A stretch of 50,056 bases of DNA from Bacteroidota bacterium (GTDB lineage Bacteria > Bacteroidota > Bacteroidia > Bacteroidales > CAIXTV01): assembly GCA_037144095.1 (NCBI GenBank), contig JBAWXL010000002.1:1-50056 (forward strand), in the 5' to 3' direction. Positions 12,652 through 44,302 of the stretch are shown here, piece after piece (the stretch's first letter is position 1; the number at the start of each line of letters is the position of its first letter). The notes under the pieces were generated by a model. That model did not search any database. It had not been told where the DNA came from and saw only the letters and a list, made by a program, of their open reading frames with translations. A program made the position numbers and the translations under genes.

Positions 12652-12861
12652 AGCTCCCACATCTCGGAAAAACCCTCCCGCATCCCGGAAAAACCCTTCC
12701 GCATTTCGGAAAAATCCTTCCGAATTTTGGAGAAACCCTTCCGCATTTCGGAAAAACTCATCCGCATTTCGGAAAAACCCTTCAACATGCTGGAAAAACC
12801 TTTCCGCATTTCGGAAAAACTCATCCGCATGCTGGAGAGACCCTTCCGCATGCACTATTTA
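12652..12861. repeat. Array A: 10 tandem 21-bp units, consensus CCCTTCCGCATTTCGGAAAAA
   Basis: Units parsed by hand in exact 21-nt register. Each has a TTCCG-N5-CGGAA dyad and a terminal A5 tract. Intergenic (12560/13151). Confidence 0.95.
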
Positions 12862-12981
12862 ACCATACTTATCAAGGGAAAATATTAAGCTAAATAAAAA
12901 ACGCAAATCTCACAAATTCAAACAAATAAGACTAAAATTAGTTTTTATTTTCATTAATAACAAACATTACACACTTATATT

Positions 12982-12989
12982 TACTTTTG
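12982..12989 (+). promoter_or_regulatory. Candidate -7 box TACTTTTG upstream of module 2
   Basis: TAnnTTTG match about 160 nt upstream of ATG 13151. Motif match only. Confidence 0.3.
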
Positions 12990-13150
12990 TTCCTTCATTA
13001 ATAAGAAACAATAACACAAAGCGAGGAACCACAAAATCATTCTTCAATAAAAGTCACTCAAACACGAAAATTGTTCAACTATAGCTCATTCAAGCATTAT
13101 AATTGTAAAAAAATAGAAATTAATCTATCGCATAAGCCAAACGTAATAAA

Positions 13151-13699
13151 ATGAACAGAGAAATAAAAGCAGATCTCTATCGCTATGGCGGATTAACCGG
13201 CACCAAAGGCTTTCTTCGCGGTCTTCGCATCCCGGGATTCAGATATATGTATCTATTACGAAAAGCCTCAAAGCTTCGAAAATACTCTCCACTGTGGATT
13301 ATATGTATTTATTTAAAAAGAAAATACAGCTATAAATACGGATTTCAAATTCCAACTGCCACTCAAATTGCCGAAGGCTTCTTCATCGGACATTATGGAG
13401 CAATTGTAATTAACGCAAAAGCGAAAATCGGGAAAAATTGCACCATTTCCCCTGGAATCACTATAGGACAAGCCAACCGCGGCAAGCTAAAAGGTTATCC
13501 AACCATAGGCGACAATGTCTGGATCGGAACAAACTCAGTAATAGTTGGGAATGTTAATATAGGATCTAATGTTTTAATTGCCCCAAACTCATTTGTAAAC
13601 ACCGACATTCCCGATCACTCTCTTGTCATCGGAAATCCCTCCAAAATTATTGAAAAACAAAACCCCTGCGAAGGATATATCAATTTTGTATTAGAATAA
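13151..13699 (+). CDS. Hexapeptide-repeat O-acetyltransferase (serine acetyltransferase/EpsC-like)
   Basis: IKADLYRYGG, GFFIGHYGAIVINAKAKIGKNCTISPGITIG, IGDNVWIGTNSVIVGNVNIGSNVLIAPNSFV. Confidence 0.8.
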   Translation: MNREIKADLYRYGGLTGTKGFLRGLRIPGFRYMYLLRKASKLRKYSPLWIICIYLKRKYSYKYGFQIPTATQIAEGFFIGHYGAIVINAKAKIGKNCTISPGITIGQANRGKLKGYPTIGDNVWIGTNSVIVGNVNIGSNVLIAPNSFVNTDIPDHSLVIGNPSKIIEKQNPCEGYINFVLE

Positions 13700-13784
13700 C
13701 AAACCACCACTATAAAAGGATACCCATAATTTTCCTCGAAAAATCAATCAGCACTCCCCGAAACATAAAGCAGTAAAAGAAAAC

Positions 13785-14840
13785 ATGCCTGAAATAAAAA
13801 TTAAGAGACGAATAATTTCCGAAAACACAACACTTCTTGATGCTCTGAAGTTGATGGATTCGACAGGCTTTCGATCTCTATTGGTTTTAAACGCAACTAA
13901 TAAGTTTAAAGGCATTCTTAGTATTGGCGATATCCAAAGAGCCATTATAAAAGACAACAAACTCGAGACACACGTAATAGATATACTCCGAAAAAACCCT
14001 CTTATAGCAAACAATAAAACTCCATTCGAAGAAATTAAAGAAATCATGATTAAATTCCGAATGGAATTTTTACCCATCATTAATTCTGACAATGAAGTAG
14101 AAACTGTTTATTTTTGGGAAGATTTATTTGATATTTATACTCATATTCCGCTAACGCAATTTGATGTTCCGGTAGTAATAATGGCAGGAGGTTTTGGCAC
14201 GCGCTTAAAACCTCTAACCAATGTTTTACCCAAACCTTTAATTCCCATTGGAGAAAAAACAATACTTGAAGATATTTTTGAACGATTTTCAAACCATGGA
14301 TGCAATACTTTTTATGTTTCAGTAAATTATAAAGCAGAATTAATAGAATATTATATTCAAAATCAAAAATTGCCTTATACTATTCACTTTTTCAAAGAAG
14401 AAAAACCTATGGGAACCGCAGGAAGTTTATCTTTGTTAAAAGAACAAATAAATAATACCTTCTTTGTAAGCAATTGCGACATTCTTATTGAACAAGATTA
14501 CTCAGATATATTAGAATACCATCGATCCAATAATAACGAAATTACTATTGTTGCAGCATTAAAGCATTATCCTTTAGCATATGGAACAATTGAAACCGGA
14601 GAAAACGGACGTTTATTAAAGCTTGTGGAAAAACCAGAATTAACCTTCAAAATTAATAGTGGAATGTATATTCTTGAGTCTCATCTTTTAAAAGACATTC
14701 CCGAAAATGAGTTTTTCCATATTACCCAATTAATTGATCAAGTGTTAGACAGAAAAGGAAATGTCGGAGTTTTTCCGGTAAGTCAAAAATCATGGAAAGA
14801 TTTAGGTAGTTGGGAAGAATATCAAAATTATATACAATAA
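13785..14840 (+). CDS. CBS-domain sugar-phosphate nucleotidyltransferase (PtmE-like)
   Basis: N-terminal CBS pair (LLVLNATNKFKGILSIGDIQRA) followed by VVIMAGGFGTRLKPLT..LPKPLIPIG, a nucleotidyltransferase signature. Confidence 0.8.
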   Translation: MPEIKIKRRIISENTTLLDALKLMDSTGFRSLLVLNATNKFKGILSIGDIQRAIIKDNKLETHVIDILRKNPLIANNKTPFEEIKEIMIKFRMEFLPIINSDNEVETVYFWEDLFDIYTHIPLTQFDVPVVIMAGGFGTRLKPLTNVLPKPLIPIGEKTILEDIFERFSNHGCNTFYVSVNYKAELIEYYIQNQKLPYTIHFFKEEKPMGTAGSLSLLKEQINNTFFVSNCDILIEQDYSDILEYHRSNNNEITIVAALKHYPLAYGTIETGENGRLLKLVEKPELTFKINSGMYILESHLLKDIPENEFFHITQLIDQVLDRKGNVGVFPVSQKSWKDLGSWEEYQNYIQ

Positions 14841-14864
14841 CCATTTTACAATAATTTTATTCTA

Positions 14865-16220
14865 GTGATTTATAATCAATTTAAATCTTTCTTTTCCAGA
14901 GGTGCTGAAAGAAGCAAATTGGCAAAGAAACATATATTATATTCTTTTTTCTTGAAAGGGATTAGTATTATTGTTGGTTTAATGTTGGTTCCTTTACTTC
15001 TTAATTACTTAGATGCAGAAAGATATGGAATATGGTTAACATTAACATCAATTGTCGGTTGGTTTACCTTTTTTGATGCAGGTTTAGGAAATGGATTAAG
15101 GAATAAACTTACTGAAGCTCTTGCCAAAGGAGAATTTCAACTTGCAAATGAATATGTCAGTACAACCTATGCAATAATTTCAATTATATTTATTGGAGTA
15201 TTAATTATTTTTTACTGCATCAATCCTTTCTTACACTGGAATGAAATCTTAAACACCACACTAGTTCCCGAAAAAGAGCTTAGTCTTTTAGCATTAATTG
15301 TATTTACTTTTTTCCTTTTGCGATTTATTTTCAATTTGATAGGAATTATCCTAATGGCTGATCAAAAACCGGCTCTAAACAATGCTTTTAATCCAATAGG
15401 CAACATTGTTTCAATTGTTATCATTTACATACTCTCAATTACAATGAAAGGAGCTTTAGTACTTATGGGGTTTGTATTGAGTATAATTCCTGTTCTGGTT
15501 TTACTTATTGCCACGTTTTTCTTATTTAGAAATAGATACCGATTCTTAAAACCTACTTTTAAAAATATTAAATGGAAACATTCTAGATCATTATTAAGTT
15601 TAGGAGTTAAATTTTTTATCATCCAAATTGCTGCAATTGTACTTTTCACTACCTCCAATATAATTATAAGTCAGATATTAGGTGCTGACCAAGTTGCGAT
15701 TTATAATATAGCTTTTAAATATTTTCAAGTGCCGGTTATGGTTTATGGAATTATTATGACTCCTATATGGTCTGCAGTTACAGATGCTTATACTCGAAAA
15801 GATTTTGCATGGCTTAAAAGTACTTTAAGAAAGTTAAATCAATTCTCATTAATAGTATTTATTGGTATTATTATAATGCTTATTGCAAGTCCTTATGTTT
15901 ATTCACTATGGGTAGGCCAAAAAGTAGATATACCTTTTGCTGTTTCTGCAACAATGGCCTTATATGCCGCAATTAGTGTGTTTCTTTCTCCATATTCTCA
16001 ATATACAAATGGAATGGGAAAATTATATTTAAGTTCAAGATTAGTCTTTTCCGTTTTTATTCTTTATATTCCTTTGGCAATTGTCTTTGCAAAAAGTCCT
16101 TTACAATTAGCCGGAGTCATGTTAGCAACTTGTATTATTAACGCTATTGGTATTCCTATTCAAATTTATCAAACTAATCAACTAATTAACCAAAAAGCTC
16201 ATGGAGTCTGGAACAAGTAG
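14865..16220 (+). CDS. wzx: Wzx-type oligosaccharide flippase (MOP superfamily), copy 1
   Basis: About 12 predicted TM segments. N-terminus LAKKHILYSFFLKGISIIVGLMLVPLLLNYLDAERYGIW is typical. GTG start per the ORF track. Confidence 0.75.
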   Translation: MIYNQFKSFFSRGAERSKLAKKHILYSFFLKGISIIVGLMLVPLLLNYLDAERYGIWLTLTSIVGWFTFFDAGLGNGLRNKLTEALAKGEFQLANEYVSTTYAIISIIFIGVLIIFYCINPFLHWNEILNTTLVPEKELSLLALIVFTFFLLRFIFNLIGIILMADQKPALNNAFNPIGNIVSIVIIYILSITMKGALVLMGFVLSIIPVLVLLIATFFLFRNRYRFLKPTFKNIKWKHSRSLLSLGVKFFIIQIAAIVLFTTSNIIISQILGADQVAIYNIAFKYFQVPVMVYGIIMTPIWSAVTDAYTRKDFAWLKSTLRKLNQFSLIVFIGIIIMLIASPYVYSLWVGQKVDIPFAVSATMALYAAISVFLSPYSQYTNGMGKLYLSSRLVFSVFILYIPLAIVFAKSPLQLAGVMLATCIINAIGIPIQIYQTNQLINQKAHGVWNK

Positions 16221-17436
16221 TAAACCCTTGAAAATTGTATGGCTTTGCCATTTCGCAAATAAAGAGTTTAAAGAGCATTTTAAAACTCCTCATATAAAAG
16301 AATTTGCCCCATGGATAACTAATACACTTGCTGTTTTTCAAAATAATACTGAAGTCGATTTACATGTGGTTTCACCAAATGTTTTTACAAATCAAGATTG
16401 TTGTATAAAAAAAAATGGGGTTACCTATCATTTCTATAAAGTAACTCCAATGTTTTTAAGGAATAGGTTATTAAAAAAAGCATATAATGTGTTAGACCTT
16501 AATTCTAGAACCAATTTTTGGTGGGTAAAACGAAAAATAGCAACAACAATTCGTAACATTCAGCCAGATCTAATCCACCTTCATGGAGCTGAAAATCCAT
16601 ATTATTCAATCGGAATTTTGCCTCTAATAGAATCATACCCCTCCTTAACAACAATTCAGGGTTTTGCAAGAAATGCTTCTTTCGATAATTTTAAGCTCAG
16701 AAAGAAAATCGAAATAGAAGAAAAAATATTAAAAAAAGTCAAACATATTGGCACTAGAACCAAGGAAATGAGTGAGATTGCCCTTCAAATAAATCCTAAT
16801 GCAATTCTACATTTTCATAACTATACTGCCGAAACACCTTCAGTAATGAAAAACAATATTGAGGGAAATGAACCCATTGACTGTCTGTTTTTCGCTCGTA
16901 TTTGTAAAGACAAAGGGATAGAAGACTTATTATCTGCAATTTCTATTGCCAAAAAACAAATTCCGGATATTTCTTTATCTGTAATAGGAAGCTCAAGTGT
17001 AAATTATCTTGAATATTTGAAAAAACTTTGTTTAGACTTAAAGATTGAAAACAACGTTAAGTTTCTAGGATTTTTCCCTACACAAGATGATATATTTCAA
17101 TATGCCATTAATGCAAAAATGTGTGTTTTACCAACTTACCATGATGTAATTCCTGGTACTATTATTGAAAGTATGCTAATAAAATTACCCGTGGTAGCTT
17201 ATGCCGTTGGTGGAATTCCTGAGTTAAACAGGAGTAAAGAAACAATAGTATTGGTTGAAAAACACAACATTAATCAATTGGCAGAAAAAATCCTTCAATT
17301 AATAAAGAATTCTGTTCTTCGAAAAACACTTTCGGAAGATGCGTATGTTCATGTAAATCAATTATTAGATAAAAATAAATTGGCAACAGACCTTCTGAAT
17401 GCATATAAATCAATTTTAAGCGAAAATAGTATTTGA
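16201..17436 (+). CDS. GT4-family glycosyltransferase
   Basis: GT-B C-terminal half with LPTYHDVIPGTIIESMLIKLPVVAYAVGGIPE (EX7E-like region). Overlaps wzx by 20 nt. Confidence 0.75.
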   Translation: MESGTSSKPLKIVWLCHFANKEFKEHFKTPHIKEFAPWITNTLAVFQNNTEVDLHVVSPNVFTNQDCCIKKNGVTYHFYKVTPMFLRNRLLKKAYNVLDLNSRTNFWWVKRKIATTIRNIQPDLIHLHGAENPYYSIGILPLIESYPSLTTIQGFARNASFDNFKLRKKIEIEEKILKKVKHIGTRTKEMSEIALQINPNAILHFHNYTAETPSVMKNNIEGNEPIDCLFFARICKDKGIEDLLSAISIAKKQIPDISLSVIGSSSVNYLEYLKKLCLDLKIENNVKFLGFFPTQDDIFQYAINAKMCVLPTYHDVIPGTIIESMLIKLPVVAYAVGGIPELNRSKETIVLVEKHNINQLAEKILQLIKNSVLRKTLSEDAYVHVNQLLDKNKLATDLLNAYKSILSENSI

Positions 17437-17447
17437 TAATTAGCAAT

Positions 17448-18767
17448 ATGCAAACTACTTCAAATCATAAACACTTATACTACATTGCTTTTATGTTAAT
17501 GGCAAGCACATTCTTGCCTTTGGTGTTCAACAATTTACCTCCTTTAATTCGAAGCCATCATATTTGGACAATTATTTGGGGCGTTTCGTTGCTTGCTTCT
17601 TACCCAAAAATCTTTTTGAACAAAGCAATGAAATATCTATTGTTTTATGCCTTTTTTTTGATTATTGCATTAAATACAATATTGAGCAGTATTGATGAAT
17701 GGAATTATAAAACCCTTCTAACCGAACTATATCAAATTGCAATTGGCCTTTCTGTCTTTACTTATTTTATTGAAAAAAAAGACTATATAGGTTTAGCCAA
17801 TCTTACTAAATGGGCTATTGTGTTTATTATTATCACTGCAGTAATGACTATAATATCGTCTGCAATTGATCCATTGTATGCAAGGAAAATTATTGGAGTA
17901 TCTGGAGTTTCTAATGAGTCAGAAATAGAAAACTTGATAACTTTTAAACGCTTTGGAGGAGGAGGTTATTCGACTGCCGGAGCCTTTATGTGCCTTTTCC
18001 CTATCTTTATTTATTACTATAAAAATATCGAATTAAGCATTGTTTCAAAAAGAATTATAATTCTTTTTTCAATTCTTGTTTTTCTAGCTTTAACAGGTAT
18101 GCAAATATTTTCTAACCTCCTTATTGCAGCTTGCTTTAGTATTATTGCCTTTCTTGGAATGAAAAAAATAAAACAATCTATTGCAGCCATTGTTTTATTT
18201 TTATCCATCTTGATTTTTGTTCCTAAAGAAGCATATGTTAACAGTTTACTCTTCATTGGAAGCAATTTCACAAAGGGCTCTGAGTTAGATTTAAAATTTA
18301 AAGATTTAGCTATGTTTATTGAATTAGGAAGTGAAATTGAAGAAGGAGGTACTGGCGCAGGGGATAGAGCTGTAAGATATGTCGAATTATCAGAAACATT
18401 TGTTCAGGCTCCAATTTTGGGATGTTATTTCCTGCCTGTAAATAATGCTTATGGCTATTTTGATCACACGATTAATTATGGTGAAATCATTCAGGTTGAA
18501 GGAACACACCTTCATTGGATGAACAAATTGGTTATTACTGGAATTATTGGAATGGCTATTTTCTTTTTTATTCCATTTAATTTTATAAAAAACAATTTTC
18601 GTCGTTTCGACCAAACATTTAAATTCTATTATATTCTCGCATCTTTAAGTATTATTAGTTATGGTTTTTTTAAAACTGTTGCAGGACGCGAAACATGGTA
18701 TGCGTTTTTTATTCTGATACCGGGTCTATATTACCTTCCATTATTAAAAAAAGAAAATAAAGATTAA
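17448..18767 (+). CDS. wzy: Wzy-like O-antigen/capsule repeat-unit polymerase (O-antigen ligase-like membrane protein)
   Basis: Polytopic membrane protein with a large loop (GSEIEEGGTGAGDRAVRY) and no enzyme motifs, in a wzx/GT context. The ORF opens at TTG 17433; ATG 17448 is the more likely start. Confidence 0.55.
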   Translation: MQTTSNHKHLYYIAFMLMASTFLPLVFNNLPPLIRSHHIWTIIWGVSLLASYPKIFLNKAMKYLLFYAFFLIIALNTILSSIDEWNYKTLLTELYQIAIGLSVFTYFIEKKDYIGLANLTKWAIVFIIITAVMTIISSAIDPLYARKIIGVSGVSNESEIENLITFKRFGGGGYSTAGAFMCLFPIFIYYYKNIELSIVSKRIIILFSILVFLALTGMQIFSNLLIAACFSIIAFLGMKKIKQSIAAIVLFLSILIFVPKEAYVNSLLFIGSNFTKGSELDLKFKDLAMFIELGSEIEEGGTGAGDRAVRYVELSETFVQAPILGCYFLPVNNAYGYFDHTINYGEIIQVEGTHLHWMNKLVITGIIGMAIFFFIPFNFIKNNFRRFDQTFKFYYILASLSIISYGFFKTVAGRETWYAFFILIPGLYYLPLLKKENKD

Positions 18768-23015: not shown

Positions 23016-23156
23016 CATATTAAAAAACTTGAATTTAATTCCTCTAATTTTTTTTAATTCATTTTTATTGATATAAAATGAATATTATTAAAGGATATTC
23101 CCTGAAATAAATTCATTTTATCCGGTTTCGAATAAAAAAAATCCAATTTTATTCTC

Positions 23157-23382
23157 ACAACAGCGAGGTTCATTGTTAAAACAAGAGGGCTTATTGTTAC
23201 GACAGCGAGGTTCATTGTTAAAACAAGAAGGTTTATTGTTACGACAGCGAGGTTCATTGTTAAAACAGGAAGGTTTATTGTTACGACAGCGAGGTTCGTT
23301 GTTAAAACAGGAGGGTTTATTGTTACGACAGCGAGGTTTATTGTTAAAAAAACAAGGATGATTTTCACGATAGCGAGCATAG
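23157..23382. repeat. Array B: about 5.4 tandem 42-bp units (ACGACAGCGAGGTTCATTGTT + AAAACAAGAAGGTTTATTGTT)
   Basis: Parsed by hand. The two 21-nt halves of a unit match at 15/21 positions, so the base period is 21. Intergenic (23015/23586). Confidence 0.95.
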
Positions 23383-29639: not shown

Positions 29640-29641
29640 AA

Positions 29642-32892: not shown

Positions 32893-32942
32893 GATTATTC
32901 CTGCATAAAGGCTAATTCAATTCTTCTAAATCAATTAATAAA

Positions 32943-34622: not shown

Positions 34623-34645
34623 AGATAAAATTAATTTTTGAATTG

Positions 34646-34680
34646 GAAAAAGCCTTGTGAAAACGGGGCTTTTTCTGTTT
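34646..34680 (+). terminator. Intrinsic terminator after the OMP gene
   Basis: GAAAAAGCC (34646..34654) pairs with GGCTTTTTC (34667..34675), with a 12-nt loop and a T-rich tail. Confidence 0.6.
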
Positions 34681-34974
34681 TATGTGTGAAGGTGGGGTTG
34701 TTATAAATGCAAGTTTTGGTGTAATAAAAAAAATAATTGGTTTTTTATTGCTGCATTTTATTATTCTTCTATTTCTATAAATTACTTTTATTTATAACTA
34801 AAATGTATTCAAGTAATTAACTAACTATTCTATTGTCTGGAATATTATTTTTTGAAATAAAAAACTATTTTTACAAACTTACCTTAACCTTGATTAACTT
34901 TTTTACAATGAAGATTTATATTGTTCATTCATTCCTAAGATTCTTTAAAAAAGGAAAATTCAGCCAAAATTTGA

Positions 34975-35142
34975 GGTAGAAACGACATACTCTTACAAGA
35001 ATCTGTCGGTTCTTCTGATAGAAACGACAGGATGGTGCAAAAATCTGTCGTTTCTTCTGGTATAAACGACAGGATGGCGTAAAAATCTGTCAGTTCTTTT
35101 GGTACAAACGACAGGATGGTGCACCATCCTGTCGTTTGTACC
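34975..35142. repeat. Array C: 4 tandem 42-bp units, each a hairpin (AAACGACAG..CTGTCGTTT); the last unit is a perfect 42-nt palindrome
   Basis: Units at 34975, 35017, 35059 and 35101. I checked 35101..35142 (ggtacaaacgacaggatggtgcaccatcctgtcgtttgtacc) base by base and it is fully self-complementary. Confidence 0.95.
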
Positions 35143-35342
35143 AGTATTTTTAGCCTCTTTTTTCATCAAAAAACAGCTTTTTAATATGCAAATAATCATT
35201 TAAAACACATATTATCATTGCTTTAGCATTAAATGATCCCACCACCACAACAATGCCCTTATTGAATGTCTGTTCAATTCCAATAAAAGACACTCGGATT
35301 TACCGGTTTGGTAGTAGTTTTTTTTACACTTCAAACAAAAAC

Positions 35343-35350
35343 TAATTTTG
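35343..35350 (+). promoter_or_regulatory. Candidate -7 box TAATTTTG upstream of module 4
   Basis: TAnnTTTG match about 95 nt upstream of ATG 35444. Confidence 0.3.
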
Positions 35351-36439: not shown

Positions 36440-36631
36440 TGTTTTAATGAATTTTAGTTTTATAAAGAATTCTTTGTGTAATTTTGTCTTGACTTTGAGT
36501 CCCTTTTGAGGAATTGACAAACTAATCTTCACGAAGAGAATTTACAAAATGAGAAATAAAATCAGCTTGTATTAAAATTTAAAAGTGAATATAACGTATT
36601 CTTTGCAAATAAATCAAACAGAAAATAACGA

Positions 36632-37807
36632 ATGAACATTCCCATTGCCCGCACTTCTTTCAACGAAAAGGATTTCGAAAACATCCTGCAACCTCTTCGA
36701 AGCGGATGGATTGTACAAGGACCTTTTGTAAAGGAATTTGAAGAAAAGTGGGAGAAATTCACCGGAATACCTCATGCGCTTGCCGTTTCAAATTGCACCA
36801 CTGCACTTACCTTATCGGTGTATGCTTTAGGAATTCGTCCGGGCGATGAAGTGATAGTGCCCTCTTTCACATGGATAGCCACTGCCAATGCTGTGGAAAC
36901 CCTGGGGGCAACGCCTGTCTTTTGTGATATTGATTTGGGAAGTTATAATATTAAGGTGGATGAGATTGAAAAGAAAATAACGTCACGCACTAAAGCCATT
37001 ATTCCTGTTCATCTTTTCGGTTTGGCTGCCGAAATGGATGCGGTGATGGAAATTGCCCATAAGTATAATTTGAAAGTTATTGAAGATGCTGCCTGTGGTT
37101 TTGCTGCTAAATATAAAGGAAAGCATGTGGGAGGTATTGGCGATACGGGCTGCTTTAGTTTTCATCCCCGCAAAGCCATCACCACGGGTGAAGGGGGAAT
37201 GGTCACTACAAACGACCCTGAAATGGCTACTCTCCTGCGTTCACTCAGAGACCACGGAGCTGCCACTTCAGATTTACAAAGACATCTCGGCAATAAACCC
37301 TATTTGTTGCCCGATTTCCCTTATGCAGGTTTCAATTTCCGCATGACGGATATACAAGCCTCAATAGGTTCTTCACAAATGGACAGGGCTGAGGAAATAT
37401 TTAACCTTCGTACACTATGGGCTAAGCAATACAACGACTTTCTGGTGAAGCATGATTGGCTGCAACCCACTGTGGTTAAAGAAGATTATGTGCATGGATA
37501 TCAATCCTTCGTGTGTCTTTTTGCTCCTGAAGAAATCACACAACAAAACATGGAAAGCATCCATCAGCAACGGAATGCTTTTATGGATTATCTTCAGCAA
37601 CAGGGTATTTCTACCCGTCCGGGGACACATGCCGTGCATGCATTAGATTATTATAAAAACAAATATCATATTCAGCCTGCTGATTATCTAAATTCACTCA
37701 TAGCAGATCGTTGTAGCATTGCTTTACCTTTGTTCCCGACCATGACTCAGGAAGAATTCGATTATATTGCTTTTCATATCGAGGCATTTAGCAAAAAAAT
37801 TAAATAA
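36632..37807 (+). CDS. DegT/DnrJ/EryC1/StrS-family sugar aminotransferase
   Basis: VIVPSFTWIATANAV, IPVHLFG, IEDAACG, FSFHPRKAITTGEGGMV, NFRMTDIQASIG. Confidence 0.88.
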   Translation: MNIPIARTSFNEKDFENILQPLRSGWIVQGPFVKEFEEKWEKFTGIPHALAVSNCTTALTLSVYALGIRPGDEVIVPSFTWIATANAVETLGATPVFCDIDLGSYNIKVDEIEKKITSRTKAIIPVHLFGLAAEMDAVMEIAHKYNLKVIEDAACGFAAKYKGKHVGGIGDTGCFSFHPRKAITTGEGGMVTTNDPEMATLLRSLRDHGAATSDLQRHLGNKPYLLPDFPYAGFNFRMTDIQASIGSSQMDRAEEIFNLRTLWAKQYNDFLVKHDWLQPTVVKEDYVHGYQSFVCLFAPEEITQQNMESIHQQRNAFMDYLQQQGISTRPGTHAVHALDYYKNKYHIQPADYLNSLIADRCSIALPLFPTMTQEEFDYIAFHIEAFSKKIK

Positions 37808-37816
37808 AGAAATTGT

Positions 37817-39691
37817 ATGTGCGGAATCACCGGAATATTTAATATCGACAAGAAACCCATTCCATTGGGCGTATTAAAGCACATGACCGATGTGATACAA
37901 CACAGAGGTCCGGATGGTGAAGGTTTTTGGAATGAGGGATATATAGGTTTCGGTCATCGTAGACTTTCGATTATTGATTTAAGTCCGGGTGGTCATCAAC
38001 CCATGATGAGCACCGATGGTAGATATATTATTACCTATAATGGGGAAGTTTATAACTTTCAGCAATTACGTGTGGAGTTAGAAAAAGCCGGGCAGCGCTT
38101 TCATTCTGATAGCGATACAGAAGTAGTGATAAATGCATTTGCCGAATGGGGCGAAAAAGCCATTCTACGCTTTAATGGCATGTTTGCTTTTGCACTTTGG
38201 GACACTCACGAGAAACGTCTTTGGCTTGTCCGCGACCGTTATGGCATAAAACCTTTGTATTATTTCTTTGATGGAAAAACATTGGTCTTTGGTTCTGAAA
38301 TTAAATCCATTATACAACATCCGGCTTATCAAACCAGAGTTTCTATTGAAGCTTTGAATGAATATTTCTCCTTCCAGAATATATTTTCCGACCTCACTCT
38401 TTTTGAAAACGTCAAACTGCTGCAACCCGCAACCTATTTAACATTTGAACTCGACAAAGGGCTTACCAAACAGCACATGTATTGGGACTATGACTTCGAA
38501 GAGCAGGAAAAGTTTTCGTCAGAAGAAGAATACATTGAAGAGCTTGACCGGTTATTCAGTCAGGCTGTAAACAGACAATTAATAAGTGATGTGGAAGTGG
38601 GTTCTTTTTTAAGTGGAGGCATGGATTCAGGTGGAATTACATGCATTGCTGCCAATAACTTTAAGAATCTAAAGACTTTTACCGCAGGTTTTGATCTAAC
38701 CTCCGCCTCCGGCCTTGAATTGGGTTTCGATGAAAGAGGGAAAGCTGAATTTCTTTCTAGTCTATATAAGACAGAACATTATGAAGTAGTCTTAAAGTCA
38801 GGAGATATGGAAAGAGTTATGCCGGAACTCATCTGGCATCTCGAAGATTTACGGGTTGGTCAATCCTATCCCAACTTCTATGTAAACCGTTTAGCCAGTA
38901 AATTTGTGAAAGTTGTCCTTTCTGGAACTGGAGGAGATGAACTTTTTGCAGGATATCCCTGGCGCTATTATATGACGGTCGTAAATGAAGATGCACAACA
39001 CTATGCAGAGAAATATTATCGCTACTGGCAACGATTAATCCCCGATAGTTATAAGCCGAAGTTCTACCAACAAGACATCTATCCCCGAATCTGGAACTAT
39101 CAAACCAAAGACATTTTTACGAAGGTATTAAATGTTGAGCATCCATACAGAACTCCTGAACAATACATCAATCATTCGCTGTATTTCGAGATAAAGACAT
39201 TTATGCATGGCTTGTTGATGGTGGAAGACAAGCTGAGTTTAGCACATAGCCTCGAAACTCGTGTGCCTTTCCTCGATAATGATTTAGTAGACTTCGCTAT
39301 GAAGGTCCCGATTCGATATAAGCTAAAGAACTTAGGCGAGGTGGTCCGAATAAATGAAAATGAACCCGGTCAAAAGACCCGAAAATATTTTGAAAAGACC
39401 AATGATGGGAAAATACTCCTCCGAAAAGCACTGGAGAAGTACGTTCCGCTAAATTATACAGAGGGAATCAAGCAAGGTTTCTCAGCTCCTGATGCAAGTT
39501 GGTTCAAAGGCGAGAGCATTGATTACATTAGGAATCTGTTGTTCGACAAAAAAGCAAGGATATACGATTATATACAACCGGAATTTGCGCATGAGTTAAT
39601 GAATGAGCATTTTAGTGGGCAAAACAACCGTCGACTGTTAATTTGGAGCTTGCTTAGTTTTGAATGGTGGCTTAAAACCTTTATGAAATAG
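37817..39691 (+). CDS. Asparagine synthase (glutamine-hydrolysing)-like amidotransferase
   Basis: MCGITGIF N-terminal nucleophile Cys, HRRLSIIDLS, SFLSGGMDSG (PP-loop), LSGTGGDELFAGY. Confidence 0.88.
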   Translation: MCGITGIFNIDKKPIPLGVLKHMTDVIQHRGPDGEGFWNEGYIGFGHRRLSIIDLSPGGHQPMMSTDGRYIITYNGEVYNFQQLRVELEKAGQRFHSDSDTEVVINAFAEWGEKAILRFNGMFAFALWDTHEKRLWLVRDRYGIKPLYYFFDGKTLVFGSEIKSIIQHPAYQTRVSIEALNEYFSFQNIFSDLTLFENVKLLQPATYLTFELDKGLTKQHMYWDYDFEEQEKFSSEEEYIEELDRLFSQAVNRQLISDVEVGSFLSGGMDSGGITCIAANNFKNLKTFTAGFDLTSASGLELGFDERGKAEFLSSLYKTEHYEVVLKSGDMERVMPELIWHLEDLRVGQSYPNFYVNRLASKFVKVVLSGTGGDELFAGYPWRYYMTVVNEDAQHYAEKYYRYWQRLIPDSYKPKFYQQDIYPRIWNYQTKDIFTKVLNVEHPYRTPEQYINHSLYFEIKTFMHGLLMVEDKLSLAHSLETRVPFLDNDLVDFAMKVPIRYKLKNLGEVVRINENEPGQKTRKYFEKTNDGKILLRKALEKYVPLNYTEGIKQGFSAPDASWFKGESIDYIRNLLFDKKARIYDYIQPEFAHELMNEHFSGQNNRRLLIWSLLSFEWWLKTFMK

Positions 39692-40267
39692 ATGGAAGAT
39701 CCAAAACTAATAGAATCCTTAAAAGCACTTTATCAAAGTCTTCGTGAGCAAACCCTCTCGAAGTGGAACAGAGACCTCCCTTTCGATGAACTTATGTTTG
39801 ATCGTTGGGAAAGAGCCTCGGCCTTAGGGTTTGGGGAGAAGTCATCTGTCTATCATAACTCTTATGTTTTTGGAAATGTAAAAGTTGGAGCCAACACCTG
39901 GGTGGGTCCTTTCACCTTGTTGGATGGAACCGGTGGATTGAGCATTGGTGATTACTGCAGTATATCAGCCGGCGTGCATATTTATTCGCATAACACTGTT
40001 AAATGGGCAGTTTCGGGTGGAAAAATGCCTTATGAGCATGCAGAAGTGGTGATTGAAGATTGTTGTTTTATCGGTCCGCAAAGCATAGTGTCTGCCGGCG
40101 TTCGCATTGGGAAGCATTCCGTTGTAGCTGCCAATAGTTTTGTAAATAAAGACCTCCCTCCTTTTTCAATTGCAGCCGGAAATCCTGCCATCATAATAGG
40201 AGAAGTTATTTTGGACGAGAATTCTCAGGTAAGTTTCTCATATTTCAACAAAGAACACAAGGATTAA
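39692..40267 (+). CDS. Hexapeptide-repeat acyltransferase
   Basis: VGANTWVGPFTLLDGTGGLSIGDYCSISAGVHIYSH, IGPQSIVSAGVRIGKHSVVAANSFV, AAGNPA. Confidence 0.75.
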   Translation: MEDPKLIESLKALYQSLREQTLSKWNRDLPFDELMFDRWERASALGFGEKSSVYHNSYVFGNVKVGANTWVGPFTLLDGTGGLSIGDYCSISAGVHIYSHNTVKWAVSGGKMPYEHAEVVIEDCCFIGPQSIVSAGVRIGKHSVVAANSFVNKDLPPFSIAAGNPAIIIGEVILDENSQVSFSYFNKEHKD

Positions 40268-40279
40268 TTCTAACTCATA

Positions 40280-41587
40280 ATGAAAGCTTTCCTGAAGTTT
40301 CTGATACATATTTGCATTTTCCCTTTCTTCATATTGGTACTAACCATTATTTATTTCTTTTCCCTTTTTACTGGAAAGAAAACGACTAAACCACGTCTGG
40401 TTTGGGGACCTGTGCCTCTCATCAGCAACAAATATTGGTCGGAAGCACTGAAGAAAGCAGGATATCCTTCAGAAACGCTGATGAGTAATTATTATTCTTC
40501 TATACACAAGAAAGAAGATTTCGACAAGTATACAGAAGACACATTATGTTTGGGCATTCTGAGGGATTTATTGAGGATACTCGGTCTGCTTGAGATAGGT
40601 AAGATGTATCGCAGCTTTATTTACGCTGTACTTCACTACGATATTTTCCACCATCACTTTCATGGCGGATTCATTGGGAACACTCCTTTCTGGGGATTGG
40701 AGGCTCCTATACTACATTGCTTTAAAAAGAAGATAGTCATCACGGCTTACGGACGAGACTTCTACAGATATTCTAAAGTTGAGGATGTTTCGTGGCGAAA
40801 TGGGCTGTTAAATTCTTATCCCGAGATGGCTAAAGAAGAAAAGCACATCGAACGGAAAGTACAATATTGGACTCGTCATGCAGATACGATTATAAATGGT
40901 CTGCAAATAGATGGTATGGGAAGATGGGATGTCATTCCTTATAATATGGTGACGATTAACACATCAGAATGGTTCCCTCGCGAGCAATACAGCCCTGCCG
41001 ATGGTAAAAACGGGACGGTTTATATCGCACATACTCCAAATCATCGTGGAGTTAAAGGCAGTGAGTTTATCATTCAGGCAGTGGAAATGCTCAAAAAGGA
41101 AGGTTTGCAGGTTGAGTTGTTGTTGATTGAAAAGATGCAGAACGATGAAGTGAGAAAGTTGCTTCAGGAGAAAGCAGACCTGCTGGTTGAGCAGCTTTTG
41201 TTGGGTTATGCACTGAGTGCTGTGGAAGGAATGGCTTGCGGATTGCCTGTTTTATCAAATCTTTCGAACGAAATCTATACAAGGATGTTCAGAAGGTTCT
41301 CCTACTTGAATGAATGTCCTATATTAAGTACAACTCCCGAAAACATATTGGATAATCTGAGGGTTTTGGTGACCAATCCACAACTAAGGGAAACCTTAGG
41401 CAAAGCCGGAAAGCAGTATGTTCAGAAATATCATTCAGAAAAGACCGCACAGTATATGTTTGGTGCTGTATATGATAAGATTTGGTTTGGAAAAGAGGTA
41501 AATCTGCTGAATTTGTTCCATCCCCTGCTTTCAAATCAGCCGGAGCCACCTGTAGTGCATCCGCTGCACGAAAACCGTCTTATCTAG
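40280..41587 (+). CDS. Membrane-anchored GT-B glycosyltransferase-like protein
   Basis: N-terminal TM segment. The C-terminal half (GVKGSEFIIQAV..., YALSAVEGMACGLPVLSN) resembles the GT4 donor-binding domain. Confidence 0.5.
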   Translation: MKAFLKFLIHICIFPFFILVLTIIYFFSLFTGKKTTKPRLVWGPVPLISNKYWSEALKKAGYPSETLMSNYYSSIHKKEDFDKYTEDTLCLGILRDLLRILGLLEIGKMYRSFIYAVLHYDIFHHHFHGGFIGNTPFWGLEAPILHCFKKKIVITAYGRDFYRYSKVEDVSWRNGLLNSYPEMAKEEKHIERKVQYWTRHADTIINGLQIDGMGRWDVIPYNMVTINTSEWFPREQYSPADGKNGTVYIAHTPNHRGVKGSEFIIQAVEMLKKEGLQVELLLIEKMQNDEVRKLLQEKADLLVEQLLLGYALSAVEGMACGLPVLSNLSNEIYTRMFRRFSYLNECPILSTTPENILDNLRVLVTNPQLRETLGKAGKQYVQKYHSEKTAQYMFGAVYDKIWFGKEVNLLNLFHPLLSNQPEPPVVHPLHENRLI

Positions 41588-41593
41588 TTGCTC

Positions 41594-43069
41594 ATGCTGC
41601 GGAATATTGTTAAAGATTCTTTGGTTTATGGAGCAAGCGACTTCGTGCTTAAGCTCATCAGTTTTTCGCTTTTCCCTATATATGCCCACATTTTCAGGGT
41701 GGATGAGTATGGTGTACTGACATTGGTGAGCACCATCGCCGGGTTTATCCTCTTACTCCTAAACTTGGGCATGAATAACGCTGTGCAACGTTTTTATTTC
41801 GAAAAAGACACCGGCGAACTTCATAAAAAAAAGATTATCAGCACAGGATTATGGGTGCTTATTAGTTGGTCGGTGAGCATAACTTTGATAGTGTTGGGGG
41901 TTTCCTGGTTTATGTCGGATGTTATCGCTACACGATACGGCGTTTCCTGGCTATTGCTTTGCATTGCGCTGATGGCGAACGTTCCGGCGCAGATATTACA
42001 GTTCACTCAAGACACATTAAGGCTTCATTTTTCTCCCTGGCGCTATGCTTTGGTTGCATTTGTGAAGAATGTTTCGGGCGCTATGATAGGTCTGCTATGC
42101 ATATTGGTCTTTGGCATGGGCATCATGGGCTTTTTTGCCGGAAACTTCATTGCATTTTTCGTCGCCCTGCCACTTGCGTTTGTATTTATCAGGAAAGACC
42201 TCGTCAGAGGGCTGGATAAAGAGCTCGCACGCAAGCTTATCAACTTCGGCTATCCATTTATCTTTGTAAGTTTGGCATATTGGATATTCGGTTCCATCGA
42301 CCGGCTAATGCTTGCCGAAATGAGCGACAAAACAAATGTCGGTTGGTTAGGAATCGCCTTTATGTTTGCCACCGTTTTATCGTTTATTAACAGTGCCTTC
42401 GGGCAGGCTTGGAGTCCGCATGCCTTTAAAATAGCCGGAGAAGACCAGGAAAATCACCGCAAGGTCTTCTCTAAAATACTCTCAAAATGGTTTTTCTTCA
42501 TTGCTTTTATTGGTGCTGGAGTAAGCCTCTTTTCAGAAGAACTTTTGATGCTGACGACCCCAAAAGAATACTGGCCTGCCAGTCTTTGTGTCATTTTTCT
42601 ATCGATGGGGCTCGTGTTGCAGGGCACAACGCAGATTACTGCTTTAGGCATCTCCCTGAAACACAAAACAGGCCTCCTCTCTCGTGCCGCATGGATCACA
42701 GCTGTGGTAAATGTCCTTATAAATCTTATACTCATCCCCGTTTGGGGCGCCGTTGGGTCCGCCATTTCAACCTTCCTCTCCTACATGACGCTCTCGGCTT
42801 TGTATATGTATTGGTCGCAGAAGCTCTACCCCTTACCTTTAGAGTATAAGAAACTGCTACTCATACTGATGAGCTGCTTTGTGGTCATTATTATTTCCAT
42901 ACTTTGCTATGTTTACATCGATAACATCTTATTGAAGATAGCACTTAAAGCCCTGGTCATAGCTGCCTTTGCTTTTACAGGAATATCTGCCAATATCATC
43001 TCCTGGCACGAAATCACTACCTTAATAAGAAATGGAATCGACCGCCTTCCGTTTAAAAATAAAGCGTAA
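41594..43069 (+). CDS. wzx: Wzx-type flippase (MOP superfamily), copy 2
   Basis: Polytopic membrane protein. LRNIVKDSLVYGASDFVLKLISFSLFPIYAHIFRVDEYG is a typical Wzx N-terminus. ATG 41594 preferred over TTG 41588. Confidence 0.75.
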   Translation: MLRNIVKDSLVYGASDFVLKLISFSLFPIYAHIFRVDEYGVLTLVSTIAGFILLLLNLGMNNAVQRFYFEKDTGELHKKKIISTGLWVLISWSVSITLIVLGVSWFMSDVIATRYGVSWLLLCIALMANVPAQILQFTQDTLRLHFSPWRYALVAFVKNVSGAMIGLLCILVFGMGIMGFFAGNFIAFFVALPLAFVFIRKDLVRGLDKELARKLINFGYPFIFVSLAYWIFGSIDRLMLAEMSDKTNVGWLGIAFMFATVLSFINSAFGQAWSPHAFKIAGEDQENHRKVFSKILSKWFFFIAFIGAGVSLFSEELLMLTTPKEYWPASLCVIFLSMGLVLQGTTQITALGISLKHKTGLLSRAAWITAVVNVLINLILIPVWGAVGSAISTFLSYMTLSALYMYWSQKLYPLPLEYKKLLLILMSCFVVIIISILCYVYIDNILLKIALKALVIAAFAFTGISANIISWHEITTLIRNGIDRLPFKNKA

Positions 43070-43092
43070 TTTTACCTGCTTATACAAAAAAC

Positions 43093-43983
43093 ATGAACAT
43101 ACTCATCACCGGTGCAACAGGATTACTTGGAATTCAGCTGGCAAACCAACTTGCTGAACAGCATACGATTTATGCTATCGACAGAGACAAGAGCCGTGCG
43201 CCAATGTTGCAGCATCCAGGCATTCAGCTCCTCGATATTGACCTGTTTAACCTCAATCCCGACATTCTTCCCAAGAACATTGACACGGTTTTTTATCTGG
43301 CTCAGTCAAAGCAGTTCAGAGATTTCCCGGGTGGGGCCATGGATATGTTTGCCATTAACGTAAAAGCGCCCCTCAGCATCATTCATTGGGCAGTTGAGCA
43401 GAAGGTTAAGAATTTTTTCTACACTTCTACCGGTGGGGTCTACAAGAATCCGACTGAACCCGTGAAAGAGTTCTTTGATATCAATGCAAATGAGAAGAAT
43501 GGCTTCTATATCGGTAGCAAACTTTCGGCAGAAATACTGCTGAAGAACTATTCTCACTTCTTTGAGAAGTTTGCCATACTGCGTCCCTTCTTTATTTACG
43601 GTCCGCATCAGGATGCTTCGATGTTAATTCCCAGACTTATACAAAGGGTGCAGAAGGGTGAAACTATTTTCCTCGATAGAGAAGAAGGCTTGCGCGTAAA
43701 CCCCATATTTGTGACCGATGCTGCCATGGCGTTCAGCAAGTTGCTACAGATTGAGGGCGAACATCTCTTTAACATCGCCGGAAAGGAAACGCTTTCGCTG
43801 ATGAGTCTATGTAAAATCATCGGTAAGACACTTGGCAAGACACCCATCTTCTCTATTAATGAGCAGATTGCATCCGATTTAATTGCCGATACTTCCCTTA
43901 TGCACCAATTGCTTCATTTTCCCCAAACCGACCTTCAGGAAGGCATTCGATTGACTGCGAAAGCTATGGGGTTGGTGGGTTAA
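43093..43983 (+). CDS. NAD-dependent epimerase/dehydratase/reductase (SDR)
   Basis: ILITGATGLLG Rossmann motif, YIGSKLSAE (YxxxK). Confidence 0.7.
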   Translation: MNILITGATGLLGIQLANQLAEQHTIYAIDRDKSRAPMLQHPGIQLLDIDLFNLNPDILPKNIDTVFYLAQSKQFRDFPGGAMDMFAINVKAPLSIIHWAVEQKVKNFFYTSTGGVYKNPTEPVKEFFDINANEKNGFYIGSKLSAEILLKNYSHFFEKFAILRPFFIYGPHQDASMLIPRLIQRVQKGETIFLDREEGLRVNPIFVTDAAMAFSKLLQIEGEHLFNIAGKETLSLMSLCKIIGKTLGKTPIFSINEQIASDLIADTSLMHQLLHFPQTDLQEGIRLTAKAMGLVG

Positions 43984-44050
43984 TGGAAATGTCGGGGTGA
44001 TGTTTCCTTATTTCACCAAATACTTATATCTGATTAAAAATTTAAAAAAA

Positions 44051-44302
44051 TGGAATTTGCATTCGAAATTTCCCGATGCACATGCGCATTTTCAGAATGC
44101 ACATTCGGAATTTCGGAATGCGCATTCAGAACTCCGGGATGCACATCCTGAATTTCGGGATGTACATCCCGAAAGTTGGAATTTACGTTCGGAATGTTGG
44201 GATGCATATTCAAACGTTCCGCATGTACGTCCAAGATTTTGGGATGTACATCTGAAACTTTCGAATGTGCGTTTTAACATTTGGCATGAAAGTCTGAAAA
44301 CA
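44051..44302. repeat. Array D: 12 tandem 21-bp units, consensus yGGRATGYRCATYCnGAAwTT
   Basis: Parsed by hand in exact register. Unit 6 contains the perfect 16-bp palindrome CGGGATGTACATCCCG (44156..44171) and unit 4 contains GAATGCGCATTC. Lies between convergent genes. Confidence 0.95.

Follow-up and report, generated by a model that had tools for sequence, protein, structure and literature searches.

The window analysed here (the whole 50,056-nucleotide stretch of contig JBAWXL010000002.1) carries a glycan locus whose gene blocks are separated by short tandem arrays. The locus raises two questions: whether these arrays are tied to the boundaries of glycan modules, where a first-pass annotation had placed them, and why arrays of different sequence should share a period of 21 bp, or two turns of the helix.

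The four arrays and their register

Arrays were detected with Tandem Repeats Finder, to which a wider repeat search, 21-mer register tables and autocorrelation were added. Their extents were as follows.

12639..12869, no strand assigned: array A, about 10 x 21 bp, consensus CATTTCGGAAAAACCCTTCCG
23148..23378, no strand assigned: array B, 5.5 x 42 bp, two direct 21-bp half-units per unit
34976..35143, no strand assigned: array C, 4 x 42 bp, 21-bp halves inverted
44041..44292, no strand assigned: array D, about 12 degenerate 21-bp units, consensus TTCGRAATTTCGGGATGCACA

Tandem Repeats Finder itself reported array A at 12660-12851 (period 21, 9.1 copies), array B at 23148-23377 (period 42, 5.5 copies, 89% matches, with period 21 scored too), array C at 34996-35123 (period 42; the repeat search found four copies over 34955-35147) and array D at 44060-44211 (period 21, with a degenerate continuation to about 44292). 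The edge units of array A are degenerate, and a higher-order period of 63 bp is superimposed on the array. The half-units of array B, TTTATTGTTACGACAGCGAGG and TTCATTGTTAAAACAAGAAGG, were alike at 15 of 21 positions, the same value on recount as had been given before, and the inversion of the halves in array C was evident when C1 was compared with the reverse complement of C2 as position matrices (p=0.003). Array D has quasi-palindromic unit cores (GGGATGyrCATCCC) and departs from its consensus by about 62 substitutions and 0 indels. Consecutive indel-free 21-mers numbered 10 in array A, 11 half-units in B, 8 half-units in C and 12 in D; autocorrelation peaked only at 21, 42 and 63 in A, B and D, and at 42 in C. 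The first-pass description of the four arrays, here with periods of 21, 42 (21), 42 and 21 bp, was correct, and no indels were seen; the arrays, being head-to-tail repeats with a unit within about 10-100 bp, are minisatellites.

The arrays had also been called intergenic, and each of them is indeed bracketed by Pfam-supported genes (at 12560 and 13151, 23015 and 23586, 34622 and 35444, and 43983 and 44378). Array A starts 79 bp past the stop codon of gene 11496-12560 and array B 133 bp past that of gene 21786-23015, while array D lies between the convergent genes 43093-43983 (plus strand) and lepA, 44378-46174 (minus strand). The arrays form GC- and CpG-rich islands within AT-rich spacers (48% GC in array A, 25% elsewhere in its spacer), and most start 50-130 bp past a stop codon.

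As a background for the period, 119 viral loci totalling about 1 Mb were scanned for arrays of four or more copies with a period of 9 or more; of the 100 such arrays, only 3 had a period of 21 or 42. The common register that had been noticed stands far above this level, and we conclude that the shared 21-bp period is not due to chance.

Arrays outside the glycan locus

A fifth array was found on the same contig, 200 bp past the window end, where it adjoins a tRNA outside the glycan locus.

L013 13526-13756 (window-equivalent 50266-50496), strand not given: array E, 21/42-bp register

An unrelated genome, a Prevotellaceae MAG, had two further 21-bp arrays within a single stretch of 8 kb (L006 4-309 and 5038-5299), inside and after a non-glycan operon (DUF4876/DUF6850/ABC/DUF4857). 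An ORF across one MAG array was fused in frame to the genuine DUF6850 gene and was wrongly assigned by Pfam to a family of antifreeze repeats.

The non-glycan contexts of array E and the MAG arrays argue against reading such arrays as a marker of glycan modules, and the special tie to module boundaries that had been proposed was not upheld; at this locus, the arrays should not serve as module markers. At 1271-1618, where the locus has its first boundary, there is no array, and none was detected at homologous fnl-glycosyltransferase modules in other genomes or at the boundaries of sampled capsule loci of Bacteroides finegoldii and Segatella copri. Arrays were likewise absent from about 60 kb around lepA in close relatives (LepA 92% and 84%) and from further relatives. 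The relative at 92% LepA identity, the closest in the databases, retains the lepA-PKD-tRNA synteny and lacks both the glycan locus and array D. The arrays are a lineage-specific type of intergenic minisatellite, and it is well supported that the four in the window belong to a larger 21-bp-register population in an uncultured Bacteroidales bacterium near Lentimicrobiaceae.

We compared the unit sequences as position matrices with column shuffles (45 pairs). The two sequence families that had been recognised by eye, A with D and B with C, did not reach significance (A-D, p=0.076; B1/B2-C2, p≈0.08). Three of the 45 pairs gave p<0.01, namely two within-array pairs and one pair similar by construction, and two further pairs gave p<0.05, the number expected by chance. 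All-against-all blastn-short of the spacers yielded only chance matches of 10-15 nt, with no shared flanks or inverted ends. Within the 59 kb of this genome that were covered, the five arrays of the contig are thus mutually unrelated in unit sequence.

These results bear on the suggestion that the arrays are recombination joints, that is, homologous arrays at module edges through which gene blocks are swapped between strains. Arrays do occupy the end of the locus and three of the boundaries between its blocks, block 4 stands apart in GC3 (0.44, compared with 0.27-0.32), and the entire locus is missing beside lepA in the relative just described. Mutually non-homologous arrays, however, are unable to pair; GC3 shifts within blocks 1 and 3 as well; and other genomes yielded no module close to identity, the best homologue being 67% identical and the homologue loci being free of arrays. 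The non-glycan contexts of array E and the MAG arrays likewise count against such joints, which we regard as very improbable.

An assembly artefact tied to k = 21 of de Bruijn assemblers is extremely improbable. SPAdes iterates from k=21 and the minimum k of MEGAHIT is 21, and we take the contig name to be SPAdes-style and that of the MAG contig to be MEGAHIT-style; nevertheless, the divergence between units (65-95% identity) could not be produced by graph cycles, and two unrelated studies both yielded such arrays. Array A was also base-identical in a second assembly made with a different assembler (Logan SRR12676967; k=31), these two assemblies, probably from related samples, being the only ones in which the locus is present. 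Arrays of this kind probably do break short-read assemblies.

Coding potential, dyads and protein binding

Seven codons span 21 bp, and the period would be explained if the arrays encoded small heptad-repeat proteins or relics of them. ORFs of 81-108 aa run across arrays A, B and D and one of 135 aa across array E, some of which were predicted by gene callers. An a/d-like pattern is seen in the minus-strand frame of array A, which reads FFRNAEG, and in the plus-strand frame of array D, which reads EFRDAHP; the D ORF matched generic coiled-coil proteins, and in Segatella copri we found a true coding 21-bp heptad array, in a 111-aa membrane protein. The codon log-odds of the arrays, however, were −0.01 to 0.10, below the 5th percentile of real genes (0.23±0.07), by a measure for which the true frame scored highest in 153 of 153 control gene chunks. 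Synonymous excess was absent in every frame, unit variability had no 3-periodicity, and multiple frames were open simultaneously, as expected of any stop-free 21-mer. Moreover, the A minus-strand and D plus-strand ORFs start with GTG, every heptad contains proline or glycine, and array C has no long spanning ORF. No Pfam family was detected in the array ORFs, the A minus-strand ORF had 0 homologues among 5.8 billion proteins, and the top "homologues" of the D ORF included a mollusc ORF and a 22/43-bp satellite. The arrays thus have neither the host-like coding statistics nor the homologues of a coding heptad array. A heptad-protein origin is improbable, and the conclusion that arrays A-D are non-coding, with no credible coding signal, is well supported; when genomes are annotated, arrays of this type give rise to spurious hypothetical proteins.

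Dyad symmetry, which had been ascribed to every unit, was scored as the longest perfect arm per consensus unit. The claim held for the seven arrays collectively (Fisher p=0.0085) but not individually (p 0.07-0.52 for the window arrays). When folded as RNA, arrays A, B, C and D gave z scores of −4.2, −4.3, −8.0 and −7.3 relative to shuffles, and array E, at −1.4, was no better than shuffles. Array D holds a perfect 16-bp palindrome, CGGGATGTACATCCCG, at 44152-44167. Strong curvature was predicted only in arrays A and E, and not in B or D, so the curved-DNA insulators that had been envisaged do not describe the arrays as a group. Signals predicted in or near the arrays were as follows.

12982..12989, plus strand: candidate Bacteroidota −7 box (putative promoter), TACTTTTG, between array A and gene 13151
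34644..34677, plus strand: predicted canonical intrinsic terminator of the operon ending at 34622, upstream of array C
35100..35153, plus strand: terminator-like palindrome closing array C, perfect 22+22 nt (35100-35143), then GTATTTTTAG
35343..35350, plus strand: candidate Bacteroidota −7 box (putative promoter), TAATTTTG, between array C and gene 35444

The −7 consensus of Bacteroides promoters is TAnnTTTG. Within the arrays, the pattern of an intrinsic terminator (GC-rich hairpin and T-run) occurred only at the 3' end of C; none was predicted in A or B, and the sole one near D precedes the array (43985-44007). The terminator at 34644..34677 shows that the block boundary here does not depend on the array.

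One could envisage that the arrays are phased binding sites for a nucleoid-associated or filament-forming protein, or for several dimeric regulators, each 21 bp offering a dyad on the same face of the helix. The cooperative complex would insulate or silence adjacent operons; this is the main idea of the first-pass annotation, freed of its specificity for glycan genes. Arrays of unrelated sequence share the exact two-turn period, each unit consists of a 12-16-bp quasi-palindrome and a 5-9-bp linker, the arrays are GC-rich islands within AT-rich spacers, and the old, degenerate array D has kept its register; the same geometry is seen in plasmid iterons, in F sopC (43 bp x 12) and in LytTR sites (9-bp repeats 21 bp apart). 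On the other hand, the protein would have to read DNA shape, or else a separate specificity would be needed for each of the seven unit sequences; the window genes include no regulator and no rep or par gene, predicted curvature is not common to the arrays, and the dyads of individual units do not exceed those of shuffles. We consider such binding sites possible though rather unlikely.

The maintenance of the array D register through its many substitutions hints at selection on phase, which a DNA-level role, through protein or geometry, fits better than neutral decay does. We infer that a geometric constraint or a ruler-like protein may lie behind the two-helical-turn period of unrelated arrays. 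In its strongest form, which we consider unlikely, this would make the arrays an undescribed Bacteroidales class of "phase-locked" intergenic elements, in which unrelated GC-rich dyad units are held at exactly 21 bp by a dedicated length-measuring mechanism and serve as operon insulators or nucleoid anchors. The mechanism would be either a protein filament or ruler whose pitch is two turns or the duplication of 21-bp stretches by a repair or recombination activity, and the factor would be present here and in the Prevotellaceae MAG and absent from array-free relatives. Should the 21-bp lock prove genome-wide in these lineages, the period, and not the repeat sequence, would be the selected or mechanistically fixed trait. 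Period is known as a trait in eukaryotic satellites (nucleosome length), but to our knowledge this is not an established idea in bacteria. If true, comparing the phylogenetic profiles of genomes rich in arrays with those of genomes free of them could reveal a factor in Bacteroidales that reads DNA geometry.

A proposed origin in place and comparison with known systems

The overall explanation that we favour, at somewhat less than even odds (about 45%), is that the arrays are non-coding minisatellites born in situ in long spacers, with a putative generic effect at operon ends. Each array may have been seeded in place by one stretch of about 21 bp with a short dyad, and would have grown and shrunk by replication slippage or unequal exchange between in-register units; in-register events of this kind would produce the strict register, the lack of indels and the higher-order units of 42 and 63 bp. 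The apparent marking of modules would arise because arrays are tolerated solely in long spacers, and the long spacers of the 43-kb co-directional train are operon boundaries. At the RNA level the arrays would form multi-hairpin operon ends and at the DNA level a phased row of dyads, and either form would hinder read-through or 3' decay, as enterobacterial REP/BIME clusters do. We tentatively suggest that the arrays, if active at all, are probably generic structured operon-end spacers. Several results fit this explanation poorly. Slippage accounts for the register within an array but not for a 21-bp period common to seven independent arrays, a role at the RNA level offers no reason for a 21-nt period, and array E folds at the level of shuffles. 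In addition, array C lies 300 bp past a normal terminator, which renders a terminator role for it redundant, and array D is still indel-free.

The arrays had not been recognised as a described element class, and no match was found to any class that could be tested. CRISPR arrays were rejected because the units abut without unique spacers. The only Rfam match at gathering score was tRNA-Phe, E-value scans returning only chance miRNA-like hairpins, and no viral sequence matched the arrays. Plasmid iterons and partition centromeres (for example F sopC, 12 x 43 bp) consist of direct repeats, about 21 or 42-43 bp long, that follow one another in tandem, each contain a dyad and are phased on the helix so that proteins bind cooperatively, and the present arrays resemble them as tandem 17-43-bp direct repeats in helical phase. 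Iterons and centromeres, however, adjoin plasmid rep/par genes, whereas here five different arrays occupy one chromosomal contig; this candidate was rejected, since the neighbouring genes identified with Pfam were only polysaccharide genes, lepA and genes of secreted proteins, and there was no plasmid match.

Enterobacterial REP/BIME clusters stabilise and delimit transcripts. Like them, the arrays are extragenic, GC-rich relative to the spacer and palindromic, and often lie just after a stop codon or between convergent genes; in arrays C and E orientation alternates, as in BIMEs. REPs, in contrast, form a single genome-wide family, are RAYT-linked and are irregularly spaced. The present units are in strict register, their sequences differ between arrays and do not form a single family of imperfect palindromes, and no RAYT (IS200/IS605-like) transposase was found among the window genes.

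An intergenic array in Segatella copri DSM 18205 (L151 38122-38232) consists of five near-perfect 20-bp palindromes, CTATAGTTGTACAACTATAG, each with a short linker. This array is likewise from Bacteroidales, intergenic and of a period near two turns, but its period is 22-23 bp, it has 3% indels, and it is single in the 50 kb examined; as far as could be seen, it has been neither annotated nor described.

Another likeness is to BrickBuilt/PgRS of Porphyromonas gingivalis, minisatellites of 23 and 41 nt (Klein et al. 2015, PMC4596501); tandem repeats of 22, 23 and 41 nt were reported in strain W83 (PMC4596501). Both they and the present arrays are Bacteroidales elements, always intergenic, whose tandem units adjoin without spacers and span about two (or four) helical turns, and both have had spurious ORFs called over them; BrickBuilt/PgRS copies number from 1 to about 23. 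BrickBuilt is one sequence family at 19 loci with up to 6% indels (PMC4596501), and the conserved leader and tail on either side of it, which carry IS5-like terminal inverted repeats, identify it as a MITE. In the 59 kb of this genome, by contrast, no one repeat sequence recurs at many loci, each array having its own sequence and 0 indels, and blastn-short of the spacers revealed no common leader or tail flanks with IS5-like inverted repeats. The period is exactly 21 and not 23, and the novelty of the arrays is confined to this one point.

The 21-bp register of the arrays

All four intergenic arrays of the window (A to D) were recovered by Tandem Repeats Finder with no indels, which bears out the 21/42-bp register proposed in the first-pass annotation; the likeness it gave for the half-units of array B (15/21) was also correct. 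A fifth array (E) lies on the same contig past the window end, and two further arrays (L6_1 and L6_2) lie in locus L006 of a Prevotellaceae MAG.

Tandem arrays with a period of 21 or 42 bp (A to D as scored by Tandem Repeats Finder)
Array A, 12660-12851: period 21 bp (also 63 bp), 9.1 copies, 0% indels
Array B, 23148-23377: period 42 bp (89% matches; also scored at 21), 5.5 copies, 0% indels
Array C, 34996-35123: period 42 bp, 3.0 copies, 0% indels
Array D, 44060-44211: period 21 bp, 7.2 copies, 0% indels
Array E, L013 13526-13756, equal to window 50266-50496 (L013 position + 36740): direct 21-mers, then a 42-bp unit with partly inverted halves; half-units GTCGATAGCGCAAAACCTTCG / GTCGTCGTCATGTTTTCGATT
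L6_1, L006 4-309 (JAIRMW010000004.1): 14.6 copies of GCGGACGCATTTCCCCGGAAT
L6_2, L006 5038-5299: 12.4 copies of the 21-bp unit GGGAACTCCCCGAGACTTTGG, unrelated to L6_1

A separate repeat search extended array C to four copies (34955-35147), and when the sequence was laid out in 21-base rows, A, B, C and D gave 10, 11, 8 and 12 consecutive 21-mers, each in a single register. Autocorrelation peaked solely at 21, 42 and 63 in A, B and D, and at 42 in C. Every unit of array D (12/12) aligned best with the consensus at offset 0, with 62 substitutions and no indels over the 12 units. An assembly artefact is very unlikely as the source of the arrays, because the Logan assembly of SRR12676967, made with another assembler, is identical base for base to the window over 9172-18123, array A included, and because the units differ from one another. 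The window is also contained in a 72-kb ENA metagenome contig (ERZ4200879 NODE_182). Over the part compared, the window and the public ENA contig are identical except at seven positions (18062, 18066, 18069, 18074, 18124, 18125 and 20218), six of which are T in the window and G in the ENA contig and fall within 64 bp inside the ORF 17433-18767.

The background for the period was a set of 119 viral-contig loci (~1 Mb) obtained by a variable-gap motif scan, in which Tandem Repeats Finder detected 100 arrays of 4 or more copies with a period of 9 or longer. Their periods were mainly 9, 12, 15 and 18, and three of the 100 were at 21 or 42; with a background of ~3%, four of four window arrays at 21/42 is improbable. 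A search of genome contigs with an A-type two-unit pattern returned seven stretches, one of which was a real array (L6_1), the other six being chance single matches within genes. L6_2 was found independently of the search pattern, five kb from L6_1. In total, seven arrays of unrelated sequence from two distant Bacteroidales lineages all have a period of 21 or 42, and their common 21-bp register is non-random.

Unit sequences, coding potential and structure

The arrays had been sorted by eye into two sequence families, A with D and B with C. We compared position matrices cyclically on both strands against column shuffles (45 pairs), and this grouping was unsupported (A-D, p=0.076; B-C, p~0.08). 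Only three pairs reached p<0.01, namely the half-units B1-B2 and C1-C2 (inverted) and the pair A-L6_1, the last being similar by construction; the number of remaining pairs with p<0.05 equalled the chance expectation. No common flanks were found among the spacers. The arrays matched no Rfam family, plasmid blastn with arrays A and B gave no match, and neither did viral scans with D- and B-type patterns.

ORFs of 81-108 aa (A, B, D) and 135 aa (E, placed by the gene caller) run over the arrays, and these mean little because any stop-free 21-mer yields open frames. In favour of coding, or of a relic of coding sequence, is the resemblance of the D(+) frame to generic coiled-coil heptads. The codon log-odds of the arrays (-0.01 to 0.10) lie below those of real genes (0.23±0.07 in the window) by a measure that scored the true frame best in 153/153 gene chunks. 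Pfam held no family for the array ORFs, the A(-) ORF gave 111 word-sharing candidates but no significant match among 5.8 billion proteins, an exact-sequence cluster look-up with four array ORFs returned no members, and there was no 3-periodicity in unit variability. Synonymous excess was absent in every frame, a result of low power given that the coding control had no excess either. Against 1.84 billion representatives the D(+) ORF had 36 matches, to generic heptad/coiled-coil proteins and minisatellite ORFs. These were rejected as evidence for a D family, since they are of mixed origin (including the mollusc Lottia) and the most D-like protein (P0250) comes from a gene-poor contig with a 22/43-bp satellite. 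We regard coding, or a relic of it, as very improbable; the arrays exist as described, do not encode protein and are unrelated to one another in sequence.

A separate observation concerns L006 3396-5342 (- strand), where L6_2 shares its reading frame with the DUF6850 gene that follows it. Gene callers yield a 648-aa fusion because no in-frame ATG exists other than one upstream of the array; a signal-peptide-like segment within the fusion lacks its own ATG, and Pfam spuriously assigns the repeat part to a grass antifreeze beta-roll family (E = 6e-12).

The dyad symmetry claimed for every unit held as a tendency across the seven arrays (Fisher combined p 0.0085), but is weak in the individual unit. 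Whole arrays folded more stably than their dinucleotide shuffles, with z values of -4.2 (A), -4.3 (B), -8.0 (C) and -7.3 (D), and array C closes with a perfect palindrome (22+22 nt), after which comes a T-run. The GC content is 38-48% in the arrays versus 22-29% in the spacers (36% for the spacer of E), and CpG observed/expected is 1.1-2.3 in the arrays versus 0.89 in the window. For A, E and L6_1 a dinucleotide wedge model predicted strong curvature; C was borderline, and no curvature was predicted for B, D or L6_2. Curvature was therefore rejected as the property common to the arrays.

Gene order, operon ends and relatives

The polysaccharide genes (1619-43983) form an unbroken train on the + strand. 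By Pfam they encode sugar-nucleotide epimerases, dehydratases, aminotransferases, acetyltransferases, GT4 glycosyltransferases, two Wzx-type flippases and an fnlABC-like set; 3' of the train are lepA (- strand), a PKD/CHU_C secreted protein and tRNA-Phe. Within the train, CAACCT hexamers run at 8633-8675, 9139-9210 and 9660-9685, spaced by ~500 bp. The first run is directly 3' of a 23S_rRNA_IVP-family gene (8282-8647), and the second is in frame in a DegT aminotransferase ORF (8680-9924), encoding ~(QP)12 between two Pfam-matched stretches; ATAAGGTT begins both at 8610 and at 9122.

Arrays A to D sit in the four longest spacers beyond 12 kb, which without the arrays still measure 375 (A), 339 (B), 653 (C) and 163 bp (D). 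These lengths, a canonical terminator upstream of array C (34644-34677) and candidate Bacteroidota -7 boxes downstream of A and C argue that the spacers are genuine operon boundaries, array or not. Terminator prediction gave nothing at A or B; near D it gave only one weak terminator-like hairpin, directly past the upstream stop codon. Most arrays start a short way past a stop codon, at +79 (A), +133 (B), +78 (D), +91 (L6_1) and +50 (L6_2), D being also 76 bp from the lepA stop, with convergent genes on its two sides. Array C starts at +354, past the terminator, and E is distant from all gene ends. The first locus boundary (1271-1618) has no array. GC3 is 0.44 in gene block 4 (35444-43983) and 0.27-0.32 in the other blocks, and it shifts within blocks 1 (1619-12560) and 3 (23586-34622) too, so the arrays do not mark compositional joints.

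Array E lies outside the glycan locus, with tRNA-Phe and small ORFs as neighbours; L6_1 follows a DUF4857 gene, and L6_2 lies between the DUF4876 and DUF6850 genes of a single operon. Adjoining tRNA-Phe (49486-49558, - strand), at 49660-49965, a 125-bp unit is repeated in tandem (2.4 copies, 93% matches); it is composed of the 8-bp sub-repeats TTTAGACT, TTTAGGCT and TTTAGCTG, each copy holding a terminator-like hairpin and a T-run. On L013, 14010-14165 and 15375-15520 are two copies of a ~150-bp element of MITE- or REP-like appearance, with GC-rich nested palindromes (…GCCTGCCTGACGGTAGTCAGGCCTGCCTGCCGTCAGGCAGG…), lying in an AT-rich spacer; the window contains no copy of this element.

Proteins labelled Lentimicrobiaceae or Bacteroidales share 81-82% identity with LepA of the window, and the closest relative (locus L012) shares 92%. 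This relative keeps the lepA-PKD-tRNA-Phe order and lacks the glycan locus, array D and the array E segment; an ECF sigma factor gene lies 76 bp after its lepA, so the 43-kb polysaccharide locus is an insertion or rearrangement relative to L012. The 125-bp repeat is missing there as well, the tRNA being ~160 bp from the next gene. Tandem Repeats Finder detected no such arrays in L010-L012 (62 kb) or in the lepA neighbourhoods of relatives with LepA 83-84% identical. The glycosyltransferase that precedes array B has its closest homologues at 67% and 63% identity, on contigs that share the fnl genes and have no arrays, and a metagenome search with the DUF6850 neighbour of L6_2 gave one locus, 33% identical, with no array. 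A related fnl-glycosyltransferase locus occurs in three independent assemblies (L135, L136, L137), all of which end at one sequence, 63-88 bp past the glycosyltransferase stop codon; this suggests a repeat that assemblers failed to span or a strain-variable junction. Two LepA homologues (P0002 and P0003, 754-774 aa) carry an exact internal duplication (L011 8791-9739, 474 bp x 2.0), probably an artefact of metagenome scaffold assembly.

As controls we used the capsule regions of two cultured Bacteroidales (50 kb each). That of Bacteroides finegoldii had no arrays. In Segatella copri DSM 18205 there was a single intergenic array, its five palindromic units repeating every 22-23 bp (L151 38122-38232, NZ_CP085933.1 138122-138232; near-perfect 20-bp palindrome CTATAGTTGTACAACTATAG), near an HU-family gene and adjoining the capsule locus, with no feature annotated over it. 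S. copri also has an evidently coding 21-bp array, which encodes the coiled-coil heptads of a membrane protein of 111 aa; this array (CTTCCGACATCTTCGAA) was rejected as kin of array A (CTTCCGCATTTCGGAA), being coding and giving p=0.63. From the array-free relatives and controls, the arrays are lineage-specific and not general to Bacteroidales glycan loci. The special link to glycan-module boundaries in the first-pass annotation did not survive array E outside the locus, L6_1 and L6_2 elsewhere and the array-free homologous loci: the arrays are not tied to glycan modules.

Origin, likely effect and known elements

Each array may have been born in place and evolved by in-register slippage or unequal exchange, which would account for the strict register and for the higher-order units of 42 and 63 bp. 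Their seeming tie to module boundaries would then arise because arrays are tolerated only in long spacers, and in large part it reflects where non-coding sequence is available. The most plausible effect of the arrays would be that of a structured spacer at operon ends, acting through multi-hairpin 3' ends on the RNA or through dyads set in phase; bearing on this are the terminator-like hairpin of C and the position of D between convergent genes. The main rival, a phased protein-binding array, explains the period naturally, but would need numerous binding specificities, or else a protein able to recognise DNA shape. The indel-free decay of array D hints at selection on phase.

The literature search turned up no description of such intergenic 21-bp arrays in Bacteroidota. 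REP/BIME, iterons, sopC and CRISPR each have some traits in common with the arrays, but each has at least one defining feature that the arrays lack. The known elements that come closest are BrickBuilt/PgRS of P. gingivalis, intergenic minisatellites of 23 and 41 nt over which spurious ORFs were called (PMC4596501), as over the arrays here. However, BrickBuilt has conserved leader/tail flanks with terminal inverted repeats and is a single sequence family, whereas the arrays have no such flanks and are mutually unrelated, and we therefore rejected membership. The arrays are bacterial intergenic minisatellites in which the new element is a common period rather than a common sequence.
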